Positions 10,598 through 60,715 of a stretch of 64,000 nucleotides of DNA are shown here, one piece after another (the stretch's first letter is position 1; the number at the start of each line of letters is the position of its first letter). Origin of the DNA: Candidatus Uhrbacteria bacterium. Its GTDB lineage: Bacteria; Patescibacteriota; Patescibacteriia; UBA9934. The stretch spans positions 30,393-94,392 of the forward strand of contig JABHCP010000012.1 of NCBI GenBank assembly GCA_018673485.1, given 5' to 3'. The position numbers and the translations under genes were made by a program. Below the pieces are notes generated by a model that was given only the letters and a program-made list of their open reading frames with translations, did no database searches and was not told where the DNA came from.

Positions 10598-11941
10598 TTA
10601 TTCGATTGCGTCACCGAGTCGGTGCAATGCGAGCGTTTCGTCTGATACGTCAATTATGTCGTTCCATTGCCAACCAAATGAGTTAAATATGCTTTCTGAT
10701 CCAATCGGTAGTCTCTCACCCTCGGCAATAACGTATACGGTTGGATCGGTTGTTGTCTTAATAAGATATCCGTCAGGGATTAGTAGGTGAGCGGCCTCAG
10801 CGTATTGCTCGACCTCCACTGGTTCGATAATTCTAGATGATAATCCAAAGCGAGCGAGCGCTATATCTTGAGTTAAAACTGCGTGTCGAAGCCCACCTTG
10901 GAGATAGTAATATGCATCATTTGTAGAGAGCTGAACTAGTTCACCGGTAACGCTTGCGGTGGACGCTGTGATTGTTGCACCTTGCTCGTAAAGCTCCACG
11001 TCGTCACTGTCTATTTCATTTAATTCATCATCTTTAAATCCAAGTGTGTAAAATGAATCAACAGAATCAAACGGCCTTAGTGAATCATCAACTAGTAAAT
11101 AGATGTTCTCATCGTCATCATGGAGAAGGGAATAGTTCGGGAAATCAATTGCCCGCCCGTCGGAATAATTATCAAGTGTTTCAGGATTAACCTCTATGAT
11201 TAGATCGGAGTTAAAGCGTGATAATAGGGCGGACCAACTATTAATCGGTCGCTTGAATCCATATTCAATGTAGTAAACTCCGCTTTCGCCTGCAGCCTGC
11301 AATAGCGAGCCGGTGGGGTAGTTAGTGCTAAACCATCTGTCCCAAATCGTGACAAAGTTTTCATTTCCATGCAGGTGCGGCGTGTAGGCATAGAGTGCTG
11401 CCGTCGCTGCATTGATTGGTGTAACGGTGGTGTCATCGATCTCTACATCAACACCTGGACCGTACACACCTTGGGTGGTTCCGTAATTATCTATGTCTTC
11501 TAAGTATCCTTCCGAGAGTTGCATTGCAGCCGAGTTGACTTGTTTTCCAAATCCTTTCCAGCGCTGTATTGCCTCGTCCTGCTTGGAGCAGTCATCGCAA
11601 ACCGCATAACCCATAGCCCAGTCCAACTGACTATCAGACGGGTCATCATCCTCAACTAGTGATTGTTCTTTTTGCAACATCACCAAAAGTACTTTTGGAC
11701 TGATGCCTCTAGTCTGTGCAGTTTCCCAAATTATATTGGTTGCATAGGTATCGTCACCTTCCCAGTCTTCAGTTAAATAATCACCAAGAAACCCTCTGTT
11801 TAAGTAATGCTGAATTTGATTGAAGTCCAGAGCAAAAGGATCAGTAAAGTCCCAGTCAGAAATCAGGTAATTTGGGTCAAAAGCAAATACCTGAGCAGGG
11901 AACAGTAAAGACAGGAATATAAACATGACAAGCTTTCTCAT
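10598..11941 (-). CDS. Hypothetical secreted protein
   Basis: MRKLVMFIFLSLLFPAQVFA signal peptide; acidic, Tyr/Asp-rich mature part. Confidence 0.5.
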   Translation of the reverse strand: MRKLVMFIFLSLLFPAQVFAFDPNYLISDWDFTDPFALDFNQIQHYLNRGFLGDYLTEDWEGDDTYATNIIWETAQTRGISPKVLLVMLQKEQSLVEDDDPSDSQLDWAMGYAVCDDCSKQDEAIQRWKGFGKQVNSAAMQLSEGYLEDIDNYGTTQGVYGPGVDVEIDDTTVTPINAATAALYAYTPHLHGNENFVTIWDRWFSTNYPTGSLLQAAGESGVYYIEYGFKRPINSWSALLSRFNSDLIIEVNPETLDNYSDGRAIDFPNYSLLHDDDENIYLLVDDSLRPFDSVDSFYTLGFKDDELNEIDSDDVELYEQGATITASTASVTGELVQLSTNDAYYYLQGGLRHAVLTQDIALARFGLSSRIIEPVEVEQYAEAAHLLIPDGYLIKTTTDPTVYVIAEGERLPIGSESIFNSFGWQWNDIIDVSDETLALHRLGDAIE

Positions 11942-12090
11942 AGTGGAGTTATTATAGCAGTTATCAGGGCTCAATGCACAGCGCTCAGTGTATGATTTTG
12001 GTGCCTATTAGTGCTCTAAAACTGTGAACTGAGTACTGTAAACTGTGTACTTTTATTGCCTAAAATTAGCCCCAAATCCACGGTTAGCTA

Positions 12091-20359: not shown

Positions 20360-20411
20360 CTGACTTGAAAATAAAAAAAAGACAAGGCCGCCTTCACGGG
20401 CGGTCTTTGGG

Positions 20412-20440
20412 TTGACAGGTATTGATTTATACGCTATATT
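20412..20440 (+). promoter_or_regulatory. Sigma70-like promoter TTGACA-17bp-TATATT reading into a small high-GC gene
   Basis: ttgacaggtattgatttatacgctatatt, followed by hairpin (ctggcatgttgccag), then AAAGGAGG. Confidence 0.45.
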
Positions 20441-20482
20441 CCGAGGCTAATTTCCCTGGCATGTTGCCAGAAAGGAGGAAAA

Positions 20483-20737
20483 TTGGCTCAGTATCAAGAG
20501 ATCAGAACCGTGGCTGGAACTACCCTCCGCATTGGTGGGGTCGGCGGCAGTTACCTGTCTTTCGTTGAGACCGTGACAGAAGGGAATCTCAACGGACTCA
20601 TTACCAAGGGCTGGGAGCTCATCAAGGTCATCACACATTGCTCGGTCGAACACGACATGACTGCGGTTGCCTACGTCGTCGGCCGACCCCCCGGCGTTGA
20701 CCCTGACGGGGACAAAGCTCAAGGGGTCGAAGAATAA
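20483..20737 (+). CDS. Hypothetical 84-aa protein in a high-GC cassette (TTG start)
   Basis: AAAGGAGGA 7 nt upstream of the TTG start; GC about 58%; product MAQYQEIRTVAGTTLRIGGVGG... with no family recognised. Confidence 0.5.
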   Translation: MAQYQEIRTVAGTTLRIGGVGGSYLSFVETVTEGNLNGLITKGWELIKVITHCSVEHDMTAVAYVVGRPPGVDPDGDKAQGVEE

Positions 20738-20759
20738 GGGGTACCCCAACCCCGATCAC

Positions 20760-20795
20760 TGGACGCTCGCGCGTAACGCGGCGTCCTTTTTGCTT
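20760..20795 (+). terminator. GC-rich hairpin terminator (ggacgctcgcgcgtaacgcggcgtcc then TTTTT)
   Basis: Stem-loop plus T-run ending the high-GC cassette. Confidence 0.55.
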
Positions 20796-20800
20796 TGATA

Positions 20801-20832
20801 CTACATTCTACTTTCTACATTCTACCTTCTGC
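20801..20832. repeat. Heptad tandem repeat family R3 (CTACNTT)n / (GTAGAAN)n, copy upstream of the M23 peptidase gene
   Basis: ctacattctactttctacattctaccttctgc, followed by GCGATATAAT; inverted partner at 22110-22141. Confidence 0.65.
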
Positions 20833-20873
20833 GATATAATAAACTAAGACTTATTATAAAAAGCTACTTCAAT

Positions 20874-20911
20874 GGCAACCCTCTCCAGCTCCCCCCTGGG
20901 AAGGGGGAGGG
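20874..20911 (+). repeat. Short form of repeat R1 (GGCAACC-N-CTCCCCC-loop-GGGGGAGGG hairpin), which supplies the GGAGG ribosome-binding site of the next gene
   Basis: ggcaaccctctccagctcccccctgggaagggggaggg, then tagaact-ATG. Confidence 0.7.
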
Positions 20912-20918
20912 TAGAACT

Positions 20919-22103
20919 ATGAATTTATATAAACGCATCACATCTGCGATGTTGGTTTTAACTACCGTGCTGAGCTTGTCGGGTGCGGGTTTTGTTTTTG
21001 CGCAGACGGAAGACCTAAACGAGTTGCAAGATCAGATCAGTGTTAGGAAGACGCAGATTGATCAAATTAATGACAAGATCGATGGATATCGTGAAAAGGT
21101 GAATCAGTATGCTTCGGAGGCGGCTAGTTTAGAGACTGACATTGCGATGATCGAGAACCAGGTTGCACTGACTGAGCTTGATATTGAGGCAACGCAGATC
21201 GAGATTGAGGCGCAGGAACTTCAAGTTCAATTGTTGGATCAACAAATCAAGGAACAAGAGGTAGAGATCGCGGTTCAGAAAGAAATTTTGAAGGAAATGG
21301 TATTTGAGTTGAATAAGAATGATGAGGTTGGATTTATTGAGGTGCTGTTTAGCTCGAGTGACTTTAATGAGCTTTTCGCTGAAGTTGAAAATTTGGAAAC
21401 AATAAATGCGGATCTTCAGGATGCATTGGATCAAACCAAGGCTACAAAGGACCGTTTAGAGAATAATAAAGCAGATCAGGAAGATAGGCTGGAAGACCTT
21501 GTGTTACTTGAGGGCGAGCTTGAGTCACAGATGGCTACATACGAGCAACAAGCAAATGCCAAGGATGTTTTACTTGCCTACACAGAAGAGTCAGAGGCGC
21601 AGTATAAGGTTCTGTTAAGCGAGATGCGACAAGAGCAACAGTATATCTCAACACAGATTGCAGCATTGCAGTCTGAGATGGATAGCGCTATAACGTCGAG
21701 TGATGAATATGGAGGCGAGACAATTTTCACTTGGCCAATGGATGGTGTGATAACCGCGACTTTCCATGACCCGACATATCCGTTTCGACATCTGTGGGAG
21801 CACAGTGGGCTTGATATTGCGACGACTGCTGGCACACCGATAGTTGCAGCGGCGCCAGGTTACGTGGCATGGAGCAGATACGGCTCTTCATACGGAAATT
21901 ACGTTATGATCATTCACACTAATGGCTACGCAACACTTTACGCACACATGAGTAGTGCTGCGGTCAGTGCTGATCAGTATGTGAGTAGGGGAGACGTCAT
22001 TGGTTACGAGGGAACAACTGGATTTTCAACTGGACCTCACCTGCACTTTGAGATTCGAGAGAATGGAATCCCAGTCGATCCACAATTGTATTTAGTTAAT
22101 TAA
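20919..22103 (+). CDS. M23 family metallopeptidase with N-terminal coiled coil (EnvC-like)
   Basis: Signal peptide, a long Q/E-rich coiled coil, and C-terminal HSGLDIA...GNYVMIIHTNGYATLYAHM...GPHLHFEI M23 motifs. Confidence 0.8.
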   Translation: MNLYKRITSAMLVLTTVLSLSGAGFVFAQTEDLNELQDQISVRKTQIDQINDKIDGYREKVNQYASEAASLETDIAMIENQVALTELDIEATQIEIEAQELQVQLLDQQIKEQEVEIAVQKEILKEMVFELNKNDEVGFIEVLFSSSDFNELFAEVENLETINADLQDALDQTKATKDRLENNKADQEDRLEDLVLLEGELESQMATYEQQANAKDVLLAYTEESEAQYKVLLSEMRQEQQYISTQIAALQSEMDSAITSSDEYGGETIFTWPMDGVITATFHDPTYPFRHLWEHSGLDIATTAGTPIVAAAPGYVAWSRYGSSYGNYVMIIHTNGYATLYAHMSSAAVSADQYVSRGDVIGYEGTTGFSTGPHLHFEIRENGIPVDPQLYLVN

Positions 22104-22109
22104 TGAAAT

Positions 22110-22141
22110 GCAGAAGGTAGAAAGTAGAAGGTAGAATGTAG
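22110..22141. repeat. R3 heptad repeat, inverted partner of 20801-20832
   Basis: gcagaaggtagaaagtagaaggtagaatgtag is the reverse complement of the upstream copy with 2 mismatches. Confidence 0.65.
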
Positions 22142-22149
22142 ATTTTACG

Positions 22150-22955
22150 CCGTCATCCTGCCTGTCCTTCCTAAACTCCATGTGGAGCGAAGGCGGGAGC
22201 AACATTGTATTGTCGCCATGCGAAGCCTGGCCCGGCTTCGCCGGGAAGGATCTATTGATTGGTGGGGAAGATCGATAGGTGAGAATAGAAGATTTCTCCC
22301 GTGGGTCGAAATGGCAACCTTGAGGTTTAAGTGGGATTTATAGATTAGATATTTGAAAAGGCAAGATAGAGTTATTTCGTTTTACGACACAAGAGAGAGG
22401 GGGAGTGACACCACCGGAGAAGGGGGTGTTTTTGGTCTCATGAGACCCCTATATGATTAGTGTAATTCACACAATGACACGATGAATTTACAATTTCTAA
22501 TAAAATTTTATATAGACAGAAATTTTTTAATTATATTTGTACTATAGTAGATAATCACCATAAATCTGCTAAAGTTAGTTACCTTTTTAAACTATACCTG
22601 TACCCTGCATCACGTGAAATATACGGTGGTGTCGTATAAGATATATTGTGCGACACATAGTATTTAACAAAATGCGCTAGCGCCTTTATGCCCTGTTGTG
22701 TGAAGTTTAAGTTGTTGAAGATGTTTGAAATGTTTATATCGAAAGGGTGGTTTCCCCTGTGTCATCCTGAGTGGAGCGAAGGATCTACTCATTGAACTCA
22801 ACTCGACTCGAGTGGATTCTTCGCAAAGCCTCAGAATAACAATTATTTGAGTTCGATCGAAGTGGGTTAATATGCAATTATTTACTCCAACAAAAAAGCG
22901 TCGCATTCTAATTTTACGACACTCCCCTTTCTCCTTCGATACGCTCAGGATCTTC
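22150..22955. repeat. About 800 bp repeat-rich non-coding region: GTCATCCTG...GTGGAGCGAAGG direct repeats (22151-22200 and 22762-22790), an R4 copy (22705-22742), and a candidate MITE bounded by an inverted G-rich terminal repeat (22380-22408 and 22905-22930)
   Basis: GAGAGGGGGAGTGAC at 22392 against the reverse complement of cactcccctttctcc at 22913; direct TTTTACGACAC at 22377 and 22907; AT-rich interior with no ORF longer than 80 aa. Confidence 0.45.
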
Positions 22956-22957
22956 GG

Positions 22958-23839
22958 CTACTTTACGTAAACTCGATTACCAAATCTCAAATCGATATAT
23001 TCAAGTTCATGTACTGTCTCACCATACTCGTCGATTATGAGCTGTAAGTTATCAAATTGTTCTTGTGAGTCCCCTACCCCGTTGATATAGATGTCAACAC
23101 CAAGGGTCGATCTAACTGTAAGCCAGACTTCATCCTTGTGATCAATGATATAAGAAATAGGTGTGATAGATGTTTGGCGCAGCATCAGATCGAATTCCTC
23201 GATGGTTGATAGTAGTATCGGAGTTACGATTTGCGTTTCTAGCTCGATAGCATGGTTCTCAAGGTCCCAGATTGTGAAAACAGTAGACTGTAAGCTTTGA
23301 GATGGTGCAACCTGAGTGTTGATTTGTTGCTCAACTTCAGCGTGCTCTAGCTCGGATAACTCACGGATTGCAATTCCATCAGAGTCTAGGAAGAACATTC
23401 TATTGTTCGTGACCCATACAGCGCGCGTGATGCGCTCAGAGGCTTGTATGCTGAGCGTTCTACCACTACGCGATACATCTATCATCTTGAGCTGGAAGTC
23501 ATCTTTGAGAGCCTCTTGGAGCTTTTCGGTACGCACAAACCATATGTGTTTACCGGGCAGTACACCTAGGACTGGATTGCTGACAAACTGCCAAGTTGAT
23601 TGCTCTATAGCATCGGGATAAATAGTAACCAAGCCTTCAATCTCAATCGTTTTGATCTGCAGCCAAGGAATCACCATTAGCCCCCAAGTGATGAGAATTA
23701 AAATAAATATCGCCACCGGAGCAATCAAATACTTTTTCCACGAAGACTTATTTTTTTTATGCGCAAACAGCGGATTCTCATATTGAGATCTTTTGTATCT
23801 GGTAGCCTGATGAGATTTAAGAAAGTTACGCTTTTTCAT
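22958..23839 (-). CDS. ftsQ: Cell-division protein FtsQ/DivIB-like (single transmembrane helix, POTRA-like domain)
   Basis: Basic N-terminal tail, one helix (LIAPVAIFILILITWGLMVI), periplasmic beta-rich domain; topology-based call. Confidence 0.45.
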   Translation of the reverse strand: MKKRNFLKSHQATRYKRSQYENPLFAHKKNKSSWKKYLIAPVAIFILILITWGLMVIPWLQIKTIEIEGLVTIYPDAIEQSTWQFVSNPVLGVLPGKHIWFVRTEKLQEALKDDFQLKMIDVSRSGRTLSIQASERITRAVWVTNNRMFFLDSDGIAIRELSELEHAEVEQQINTQVAPSQSLQSTVFTIWDLENHAIELETQIVTPILLSTIEEFDLMLRQTSITPISYIIDHKDEVWLTVRSTLGVDIYINGVGDSQEQFDNLQLIIDEYGETVHELEYIDLRFGNRVYVK

Positions 23840-28548: not shown

Positions 28549-28645
28549 CCTTTTTACAGACGTATTCTACTCTGTGCGCTTTACCGTGTCAAAATTTTCT
28601 AAATAGGTCCTATGGGTCCAATAGGACTTATACGACCCATTCTAA

Positions 28646-28682
28646 AAGCCGGTCGATCGACCGGCTTTTCTGTTTTTTTACA
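28646..28682. terminator. Bidirectional terminator built on the agccggtcgatcgaccggct palindrome flanked by A/T runs
   Basis: 10-bp perfect palindromic stem, then TTTTCTGTTTTTTT. Confidence 0.6.
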
Positions 28683-28713
28683 CTGCGAACTGAGTACTGC
28701 GTACTGCGCACTG

Positions 28714-35364: not shown

Positions 35365-35435
35365 ACACCTTTATCATATAAGTGTACCTTGAACAAAATT
35401 CCTATTATAGATTCTATATTCAATATTCAATTCCA

Positions 35436-51783: not shown

Positions 51784-51857
51784 TGGCGCCGATGGCAGGA
51801 ATTGAACCTGCGACCCCCTGCTCGACGGCAGGTGCTCTATCACTGAGCTACATCGGC
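51784..51857 (-). tRNA. tRNA-Asp(GUC)-like gene with an apparent 6-nt anticodon loop
   Basis: Acceptor GCCGATG/CATCGGC, D arm GCTC/GAGC, T arm GCAGG-TTCAATT-CCTGC, discriminator G, CCA encoded; anticodon stem CCTGC/GCAGG encloses CGTCGA. Confidence 0.55.
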
Positions 51858-51871
51858 TAAGGAGTGAGAAA

Positions 51872-51984
51872 TGGCTCTGGGGGCTGGATTTGAACCAACG
51901 ACTTCCTGCGTGATGGTAGGTGAACTAACCAGTTGTTCTACCGGCTTGGCAAACAGGCGAGCTAACCAACTGCTCTACCCCAGA
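51872..51984 (-). tRNA. 113-nt tRNA-like gene: canonical acceptor, D and T arms, with about 36 extra nt in the anticodon region (candidate tRNA-Gly(GCC) carrying an insertion or intron, or a disrupted tRNA)
   Basis: 5' TCTGGGG-TA-GAGC-AGTTGGTTA-GCTC-G-CCTGT-TTGCCA[36 nt]C-GCAGG-AAGTC-GTTGG-TTCAAAT-CCAGC-CCCCAGA-G-CCA; removing 51911-51946 gives a 77-nt cloverleaf with loop UUGCCAC. Confidence 0.45.
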
Positions 51985-60471: not shown

Positions 60472-60484
60472 AGAATATTTTATA

Positions 60485-60715
60485 TTAAATATTTAATAAT
60501 TCTTTAAGCTTTGGTTTATCAAATCCGATCACTATATCTTCCCCGATTGCTGTTACAGGCACTCCCATTTGGCCTGATTTGTGAATCATCTCTTGGGCTT
60601 GTTCGTGACTAGCTGATACGTCTATTTCTTCGAACTCAACATTGTGTTTGTTCAAGAATTCTTTCACCAGTTTGCAGTACGGGCAAGTTGGAGTTGAGTA
60701 GACGGTGATTTTCAT
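60485..60715 (-). CDS. Glutaredoxin-like protein (thioredoxin fold, CPYC active site)
   Basis: MKITVYSTPTCPYCKLVKEFL; 76 aa. Confidence 0.7.
   Translation of the reverse strand: MKITVYSTPTCPYCKLVKEFLNKHNVEFEEIDVSASHEQAQEMIHKSGQMGVPVTAIGEDIVIGFDKPKLKELLNI

Follow-up and report, generated by a model that had tools for sequence, protein, structure and literature searches.

A stretch of 64,000 nucleotides from a Candidatus Uhrbacteria bacterium (contig JABHCP010000012.1, positions 30,393 to 94,392), referred to here as the window, raises the question of what short arrays of a tandem heptanucleotide with the core CTAC are doing at the boundaries of genes such as lysS, metG and cvpA, a glutaredoxin gene and an M23 peptidase gene. 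The host is a small-genome bacterium of the Patescibacteria, also known as candidate phyla radiation (CPR), with a G+C content of ~44%, and the MetG protein encoded in the window has 100% identity to a protein of Candidatus Uhrbacteria. A first-pass annotation of the sequence had proposed that the arrays replace the Shine-Dalgarno (SD) sequence as an unstructured, pyrimidine-rich initiation site or serve as a protein operator, and that an inverted pair around the M23 gene marks a mobilised cassette.

Six heptad arrays at gene boundaries

The six arrays are named E1 to E6 and loci of relatives carry L-numbers; unless such a locus is named, the comparison of CTAC arrays covers the window. Each array consists of 4-6 tandem heptads with the unit CTACNTT or CTACTNN, and all six are intergenic with respect to the called genes:

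E1, 20801-20835, plus strand: CTACATT CTACTTT CTACATT CTACCTT and a degenerate CTGCGAT, which overlaps a TATAAT box (reading CTGCGAT-ATAAT)
E2, 22141-22107, minus strand: CTACATT CTACCTT CTACTTT CTACCTT CTGCATT
E3, 53965-53924, minus strand: CTACATT CTACTCT CTACTTT CTACTTA CTACTAC CTATATC, then TCCT and the ATG of cvpA (53919)
E4, 55507-55473, minus strand: CTACTAT CTACTCC CTACTTA CTACTAC CTGCGAT, abutting the ATG of metG (55472)
E5, 60764-60730 (module to 60725), minus strand: the 40 nt of E1, then TCATTCACT (9 nt) and the ATG of the glutaredoxin gene (60715)
E6, 28548-28507, minus strand: CTATTTT CTACTAG CTACTTC GTACTTA CTACTAC CTATTTC, then T and the ATG of lysS (28505)

These arrays are real, non-random and far above chance. 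In the window, CTACNNNCTAC occurs 19 times against 0.71 expected, with all but two matches inside E1-E6, outside of which two CTACNNNCTAC doublets stand isolated, and the 14-mer CTACNTTCTACNTT is found 22 times with at most two mismatches (4.1 expected). Tandem Repeats Finder (TRF) independently recovers all six sites as direct tandem repeats of period 7 with 4.1-4.7 copies, and the CTAC phase is strictly 7 nt throughout E1-E6. Thus, the six arrays of the first-pass annotation are found where it had placed them. Its claim that the copies at 20801 and 60724 are identical holds over 40 nt, from the first CTAC through TATAAT (20801-20840 equals 60764-60725), and the inverted sixth copy is confirmed as well, E1 and E2 forming a 32-nt inverted repeat with 94% complementarity and a distance of 1277 nt. 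The gene identities were also correct, those of lysS, metG, cvpA and M23 (PF01551) being supported by Pfam and that of the glutaredoxin established separately. Conservation within the unit is uneven: the core positions 1-4 are kept in 83 of 84 cells, and positions 5-7 match the consensus in 40 of 63. No further array was found in the 8 kb to the right of the window (L249), and the matches of two scans of viral contigs were limited to perfect arrays of an unrelated kind and chance occurrences of 15-mers. E5, E6 and an array of another unit at 28682 are unchanged in contigs of the same species from at least five other samples, which are themselves 99.97-100% identical overall and therefore have no power on the copy-number variation that a phase-variable repeat would show.

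The arrays have a polarity relative to the genes. In the window, the pyrimidine-rich, G-free CTAC strand is the sense strand before starts, and GTAG is the sense strand after a stop codon. According to the first-pass annotation, five copies end 0-20 nt before the ATG. This applies to metG (0 nt), lysS (1 nt) and cvpA (4 nt) and, with the degenerate CTGCGAT counted, to the glutaredoxin gene (14 nt, and 21 nt if the last CTAC heptad is taken as the end; TATAAT lies in between). It fails for M23, whose ATG lies about 83-84 nt from E1 counting CTGCGAT and 90 nt from the last CTAC heptad. GGAG, GAGG and AGGA are absent between array and start at lysS, metG, cvpA and glutaredoxin, with M23 as the exception. 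In minimum free energy (MFE) folds of the leaders, including those of lysS, metG, cvpA and glutaredoxin, the arrays are unpaired in all cases. Taken together, we are highly confident that E1-E6 form a genome-specific family of imperfect heptanucleotide repeats with an invariant CTAC core, loose positions 5-7 and a fixed polarity close to genes, which has been spread and homogenised by copying or gene conversion and represents an instance of an already described class of heptamer repeats.

Arrays in leaders and promoters

An SD-like motif precedes only about 6 of the 49 presumed starts in the window (~12%), and in another 6 of the 49, a strong -10 box lies 5-9 nt upstream of the ATG, which is the hallmark of leaderless transcripts. 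As SD motifs are rare across the whole window, their absence at the array genes is not special and nothing is "replaced" by the arrays. CUAC is also not complementary to the canonical CCUCC tail of 16S rRNA; neither the window nor the loci of relatives contain a 16S rRNA gene. The start signals in the sequence suggest that leaderless or SD-independent initiation is widespread in this Uhrbacteria genome. Many genes have CT directly in front of the ATG and a TATAAT-like box 5-9 nt ahead of it, for example those at 11941, 35364, 45468, 48950, 60471 and 60715 (all on the minus strand).

For lysS, metG and cvpA, comparison with relatives, which were identified through homologues of MetG, M23 and PepA, helps to place the arrays within transcripts. 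The promoter of lysS reads as follows:

lysS promoter, 28564-28592, minus strand: TTGACA-17-TAGAAT (11/12), conserved with L246

This promoter and the first ~10 nt of the leader (GTCTGTAAA) are common to our genome and L246. Beyond this point, the leader of L246 continues as an SD-containing hairpin of -25.8 kcal/mol, and the one studied here continues as E6, with a predicted folding energy of -8.1 kcal/mol and the array unpaired. Since the promoter is conserved upstream, E6 lies inside an essential gene's 5' untranslated region (UTR), at about +13 to +52. The genes rsmI and metG have an 8-nt overlap in L001 and L005. In the window, they are 50 nt apart, and the gap after the rsmI stop (55523) is taken up by E4, with metG beginning at the annotated start of its 476-aa product (open reading frame (ORF) 55472-54042). 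E3 is located in the metG-cvpA spacer behind a hairpin without a T-run, and E3 and E4 are both intercistronic within a single operon. Judged from this arrangement, the three arrays in front of lysS, metG and cvpA are almost certainly transcribed right up to the AUG. We also considered leaderless promoters inside these three arrays and rejected them, as there is no TAnnnT 5-9 nt before the ATG and the lysS promoter is conserved upstream.

The situation is different for E1 and E5, which share a module of array and -10 box:

E5 module, 60764-60725, minus strand: four heptads and CTGCGAT, overlapping TATAAT at 60730-60725
M23 -10 box, 20835-20840, plus strand: TATAAT; relatives have (G/C)(A/T)TATAAT-N8-ATG, a leaderless arrangement
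R1 hairpin with the SD GGGGGAGGG, 20878-20912, plus strand: between -10 box and ATG, an insertion in this genome only; context, outside the heptad family
M23 peptidase gene, 20919-22103, plus strand: 394 aa, PF01551; bracketed by E1 and E2

Both copies thus contain the TATAAT expected of a sigma-70-type promoter, and orthologous -10 boxes lie N8 or N9 from the ATG in L246, L247, L248 and L256. A TTGACA-like -35 box is missing from the module (the best candidate, TTTCTA, matches 3/6 at 17 bp), there is no extended -10 because TG sits 2 nt too far upstream for TGnTATAAT, and the module is not among the promoters listed by a promoter scan of the window. At the glutaredoxin gene, L256 (84% identity in PepA) has CCTTCTGCGTTATAAT-N9-ATG, preceded in the 7-nt register of E5 by CTACTGC ATACTGT ATACTGC ATACTAC TCACTTT CATCCTT, and carries ACAGTAG GCAGTAT GCAGTAG after the pepA stop. 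In L255 (PepA 89%), the pepA stop is followed by AAAGTAG AGAGTAG AGAGTAA and the glutaredoxin start is preceded by CTTTCAA CTTTAAT CTTTCAA CTTTAAA CT, directly before the ATG. Hence, the sites persist, and the unit sequence is genome-specific. The 40-bp unit of array and TATAAT looks like a copy from one promoter to the other, the two -10 regions being similar. E5 lies upstream of the -10 box of the glutaredoxin gene's own promoter, and its transcription would require read-through from pepA.

At the M23 locus, the orthologues (80-86% identity) keep the gene order clpB, DUF2238, wecG, gltX ... M23 ... alr, serS ... lysS, greA in L246, L247 and L248. Heptad arrays are absent in L246 and L247. 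L248 has none before the gene and carries ACAGTAT ACAGTAG GCAGTAT GCAGTAG GCGGTAG directly after its stop, which is the site and polarity of E2. In all three relatives, (G/C)(A/T)TATAAT-N8-ATG precedes M23, which identifies CTGCGATATAAT at the end of E1 as the ancestral -10 region of the gene. In the window, the stretch from TATAAT to ATG has grown to 78 nt including a strong hairpin (R1, 35 nt, MFE -28.1 kcal/mol, z -2.3) with the SD GGAGG (20906-20910) 8 nt ahead of the ATG at 20919. E1 spans about -13 to -47 of the inferred promoter and overlaps the -10 box; E2, read on the M23 sense strand, consists of GTAG-type heptads beginning 3 nt past the stop.

The R1 element belongs to a repeat family of its own, a G/C-rich hairpin of the form CCCCTCC...GGGAAGGGGGAGG, often preceded by ATGGCAACC, which bears the only strong SDs of the window. 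Copies are found at 20872-20922, 23870-23840 (minus), 38860-38829 (minus) and 54012-53985 (minus), and also in the L246 leaders of M23 and lysS. At M23, it creates an upstream ORF of 16 codons with its ATG at 20872 and a TGA overlapping the M23 ATG. Its flank CTTATTATAAAAAGC resembles the start of the M23 gene, AATTTATATAAACGC, a likeness that suggests target duplication by a small mobile element. Upstream, relatives hold a sigma-70-family gene and an ORF of 759 aa (L246) or 300 aa (L248) between gltX and M23 (compared regions: L246 6628-9864 and L248 675-2530). The corresponding interval here (20360-20800) has instead an ORF of 84 codons (20483-20737), which possesses a promoter of its own, TTGACA-17-TATATT, and an intrinsic terminator. 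Downstream, a gene-free stretch of 580-815 nt contains blocks conserved in L246, L247 and L248, namely TTTTACGACACAAG and the hairpin GTGTCGTATAAGATATATTGTGCGACAC (22629-22656), as well as a promoter-like TTCACA-17-TACAAT at 22466-22494. The stretch 22360-22660 might represent a regulatory region or a small RNA that lacks annotation, and it has no match in Rfam; in the Rfam scan, only tRNAs reached the gathering score, and 20700-22960 had no credible match at E <= 1. The same scan reports a tRNA spanning 110 nt (51875-51984, minus strand) that has no ARAGORN call and is possibly intron- or insert-containing; the neighbouring tRNA at 51784-51857 (minus strand) is reported by ARAGORN with an undetermined anticodon.

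Possible roles of the arrays

The CTAC family is not the only one of its kind. Period 7 dominates the tandem repeats of the window, which include, besides E1-E6, arrays that the first-pass annotation had overlooked:

28682-28713, plus strand: ACTGNNN array, 4.6 copies; on the sense (minus) strand of greA CAGTNNN, directly after the greA stop
12019-12051, plus strand: second ACTGNNN array, located in a divergent promoter region and ~85% identical to the one at 28682-28713
35411-35431: (ATTCAAT)3, in a stop-to-next-start spacer
60474-60498: (AATATTT)3.6, in a stop-to-next-start spacer

The ACTGNNN unit resembles TAACTGA and the CTACTGN units of other phyla. The segment 12093-12445 (plus strand), situated in a local G+C peak (0.52), has a strong promoter, TTGACA-17-TATAGT with TG, and behind it a leader of ~240 nt rich in G and C and the 26-codon hydrophobic ORF MNTILSLIAAFTCTAGPVALIASVMM.

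For a view across phyla, genomes and metagenomes were scanned with the pattern (CTACNNN)4, and genes were assigned by crude ORF calls, which makes the following counts indicative only. The matches listed, among them at least 120 genome loci, belong to many unrelated phyla (Acidobacteriota, Bacteroidota, Cyanobacteria, Planctomycetota, Chloroflexota, Proteobacteria and CPR groups); both scans also returned telomere-like repeats, and there were no Uhrbacteria among the matches listed. Within these genome loci, period 7 leads the tandem repeats (271 rows, many units), and at least 124 arrays are without CTAC. CTAC is therefore one "dialect" of many, and we reject it as a universal core, all the more as NNN is broad; TGN is over-represented (40 of the 160 CTAC arrays listed). 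The polarity recurs in these 160 arrays. Up to 20 nt upstream of a start on the same strand, 43 are CTAC-sense and 14 are reversed, and up to 20 nt after stops, 43 are GTAG-sense versus 6 CTAC-sense. Among the listed matches with other heptads, purine-rich sense strands prevail after stops (26 versus 5), and the bias toward pyrimidine-rich sense strands before starts is 24 versus 17. In genomes that use SD sequences (L025, L029, L043, L053, L092, L102), the arrays stand just 5' of the SD, and CTAC arrays of other phyla often contain G (CTACTGA, CTACCGG). Several phyla (L030, L045, L055, L071, L073, L074, L090, L106, L114) also have divergent inverted pairs, a purine arm followed by a pyrimidine arm at 20-100 nt, whose variable positions co-vary. 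The pairs would thus form long hairpins built of heptads, and successive pairs bracket genes or operons. A general role as arms of terminator hairpins was considered and rejected, since the purine and pyrimidine arrays of greA-lysS and L255 are not complementary.

Based on these data, our tentative reading, to which we give somewhat less than an even chance, is that the arrays on the 5' side act at the RNA level, as G-free unstructured leaders for SD-independent initiation. A transcribed array would be a G-free stretch of 30-40 nt that does not fold, has no start or stop codon on its sense strand and ends 0-14 nt ahead of the AUG. It could offer the 30S subunit a structure-free standby site where SD pairing is rare. 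An OB-fold protein (S1 or cold-shock type) might cover it, and the 7-nt period would then reflect the footprint of this protein, roughly 7 nt. De novo initiation would be allowed in this way at lysS, metG and cvpA, and, in transcripts that read through from pepA, at glutaredoxin. The array of E1 and E5 also makes up the upstream half of a promoter with an ancestral -10 box. The observations beneath this reading are the transcript position, which is established via the relatives, the lack of predicted structure, the rarity of SDs and the polarity. In addition, sister species have arrays of other units at the same sites, namely in L248 (M23 stop), L255 and L256 (pepA stop, glutaredoxin), and in L256 even in register. 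The SD-independent, unstructured, pyrimidine-rich site of the first-pass annotation agrees with lysS, metG and cvpA and in part with glutaredoxin, and does not agree with E1 at M23 or with E2.

Several points weigh against such a role in initiation. Orthologous sites are often free of arrays in relatives at 75-86% amino-acid identity, and arrays are therefore dispensable. Lack of structure alone leaves the invariant CTAC unexplained, and no candidate binding protein was identified. The model accounts for neither E1 nor E2: E1 lies upstream of the -10 box and behind an intrinsic terminator, M23 has its own SD, and E1 is thus probably absent from the M23 mRNA; E2 is on the wrong side of the gene and has the wrong polarity for a leader. 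Finally, the cross-phylum sample was chosen by the CTAC pattern itself.

A broader version of this reading is rather improbable in our opinion. Heptad arrays would be a phylum-spanning cis signal, read by a ubiquitous single-strand OB-fold protein (S1 or cold-shock, ~7 nt) and marking gene boundaries, with pyrimidine-rich arrays loading ribosomes at starts with a weak or no SD, purine-rich arrays following stops, and genome dialects co-evolving with the reader. If true, the Uhrbacteria arrays which stand in place of SD hairpins would be a clean natural experiment. Most genes here, and in many phyla, start without an SD, and repeats of 7 nt directly in front of start codons have been on record since 2015. 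Comparative leverage comes from the lysS leader, with an SD hairpin in a relative and a G-free array here, from the formerly overlapping rsmI-metG pair now split by an array, and from sister species that kept the site and not the sequence.

Two alternatives to the leader model deserve closer attention, although we consider each of them unlikely. The heptads could be iterated DNA sites for a dedicated regulator, comparable to the ribbon-helix-helix (RHH) protein omega. By covering promoters or by halting RNA polymerase just past the start site, this regulator would control M23, glutaredoxin, lysS, metG and cvpA jointly. An invariant 4-bp core at a strict 7-bp phase with loose spacers fits such an operator, as do the location of E1 and E5 over the -35/spacer region of promoters with a weak -35 box (3/6), that of E6 just downstream of a strong promoter, the occurrence of both orientations (E2) and genome-specific units at conserved sites, as expected of co-evolution with a trans-acting factor. 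However, no regulator gene was identified, and the CTAC heptad differs from the omega consensus WATCACW. Moreover, heptad-rich genomes hold dozens of unrelated units, for which one protein per unit is implausible, and a double-stranded site does not predict the strand polarity relative to genes, neither here nor across phyla.

Alternatively, the arrays might have no function at all. Slippage during replication, which affects units of 7 nt in particular, would then have produced them, and gene conversion would have spread and homogenised them. They would be tolerated only at positions and in orientations that avoid harm through start codons, structure or SD mimicry in leaders. The dominance of period 7 both in the window and among the loci listed points in this direction and agrees with Mrazek (2007), as cited in PMC4679880. 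Turnover between relatives is also rapid, with several orthologous sites array-free, and the CTGC and CTAT variants at array edges resemble decay. Yet substitutions avoid the CTAC core (1/84 cells versus 23/63 at the other positions), and the polarity is strong. Besides, arrays persist at the same three sites in the streamlined genomes of sister species with 11-16% protein divergence, and one was gained between two genes of an essential operon that once overlapped. Should the arrays nevertheless be inert, they would document how heptanucleotide slippage and gene conversion shape the promoters and leaders of a streamlined genome.

Two further possibilities appear very doubtful. As transcriptional insulators or Rho-loading sites, the arrays would turn their C/U-rich, G-free strand into the gene, so that incoming polymerases (read-through or antisense) make RNA on which Rho can load, with M23 insulated on both sides. 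One mechanism would then serve E1 and E2 and explain the mirror-symmetric polarity, and the arrays are indeed G-free and unpaired. However, at 32-42 nt they are short compared to typical rut sites of 60-80 nt, arrays of other phyla often contain G, and sites of this kind would lead to attenuation of the lysS and metG mRNAs themselves. Even a little less probable is an RNA-RNA network based on the GUAG array in the 3' flank of M23 (E2). Within the M23 3' UTR, or in a small RNA derived from it, this array would pair with the CUAC-bearing leaders in front of lysS, metG, cvpA and glutaredoxin, or would close the transcript of M23 through 5'-3' pairing. The predicted duplexes of E2 with the five CUAC arrays are strong (-52 to -28 kcal/mol versus -16 +/- 3.5 for shuffles), in line with the near-complete E1/E2 match. 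Yet such complementarity is automatic for inverted copies, the 64 kb contain a single GUAG copy, transcription of M23 probably starts downstream of E1, and elsewhere purine and pyrimidine arrays do not pair (greA-lysS, L255).

The chance that E1 and E2 mark a mobilised M23 cassette or composite transposon is negligible. Terminal inverted repeats are present (32 bp, 94%), but the M23 segment, whose possible absence from related genomes the first-pass annotation had named as a check, is present and syntenic in L246, L247 and L248. The first two of these are repeat-free, and the single heptad array of the third, behind the stop, is of another kind. This synteny refutes the idea. A target-site duplication is also missing (the flanks tgctttgata before and ttttacgcc behind share nothing), and the 3' end of E1 is the ancestral -10 region. 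The bracket is an outcome of the general polarity, before starts and after stops, and does not represent a transposon.

Comparison with known heptamer systems

Among known repeats, REP/BIME elements share the tetranucleotide GTAG/CTAC. They are small intergenic imperfect palindromes of ~35 bp, mobilised by RAYT transposases, often located just after stops, species-specific and present in many dispersed copies. The CTAC arrays differ in being tandem heptads without an internal palindrome. Closer in geometry is the omega repressor of inc18 plasmids, which binds contiguous 7-bp heptads (WATCACW), direct or inverted, overlapping promoters, and serves the partition and copy control of plasmids. E1 and E5 likewise place 7-bp heptads in contiguous runs over a promoter region (about -13 to -47). 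The unit of the CTAC arrays is different, their polarity relative to genes is not explained by such a system, and no linked RHH gene was found among the window genes scanned by Pfam, the whole genome not having been searched.

Long simple sequence repeats with units of 5-11 bp have been described in prokaryotes, with heptanucleotides as the most abundant (Mrazek, 2007, as cited in PMC4679880; also PMC4692102). The dominance of period 7, the intergenic location and the sporadic occurrence across phyla are common to both. As presented there, that work is statistical and assigns neither gene-relative polarity nor function, whereas the CTAC arrays are short, imperfect and copied between loci. In Nostoc PCC 7120, deletion of heptamers near promoters and start codons altered reporter output by a mechanism left unresolved (bioRxiv 10.1101/2022.06.06.494920). 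These heptamers are likewise contiguous, lie between or over promoter elements and beside start codons, and differ in their units (TTTTGAA/TTCAAAA) and in their cyanobacterial host.

The CTAC arrays are neither a new ribosome-binding signal nor a mobile gene cassette, and their closest precedent is the TAACTGA repeats of Beggiatoaceae (PMC4679880). A Beggiatoaceae genome contains 169 sets of these repeats, most of them forward, a few nt from start codons and without a ribosome-binding site (RBS) in between, with a minority oriented toward stop codons and some at a distance (MacGregor, 2015; PMC4679880). They occur in marine Beggiatoaceae and also in some Cyanobacteria and Bacteroidetes, in sets of 2-6 copies which related heptads may interrupt; almost all are intergenic, essential genes are among those they precede, and translational regulation has been proposed, with S1, Csp and CsrA as candidate binders (PMC4679880). 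E1-E6 have the same build of tandem 7-nt units between genes, and lie forward and close to starts in E4 (0 nt), E6 (1 nt), E3 (4 nt) and, more loosely, E5 (14 nt), without a canonical RBS between array and start except at E1 (GGAGG). E1, 84 nt from its start, and E2, after a stop, do not fit this placement, although the distant and stop-directed cases in PMC4679880 offer parallels. There are also clear differences, as the host is a small-genome CPR bacterium, the imperfect units keep a fixed core of 4 nt, two copies stand upstream of -10 boxes and not in leaders, and stop codons, which TAACTGA has on its sense strand, are found in CTACNTT only on the antisense strand. The ACTGNNN family of the window is closer to TAACTGA, with which it shares ACTG(A). 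With a unit of CTAC(N)TT or CTACTNN instead of TAACTGA, the arrays described here therefore represent the same kind of element in another sequence family.

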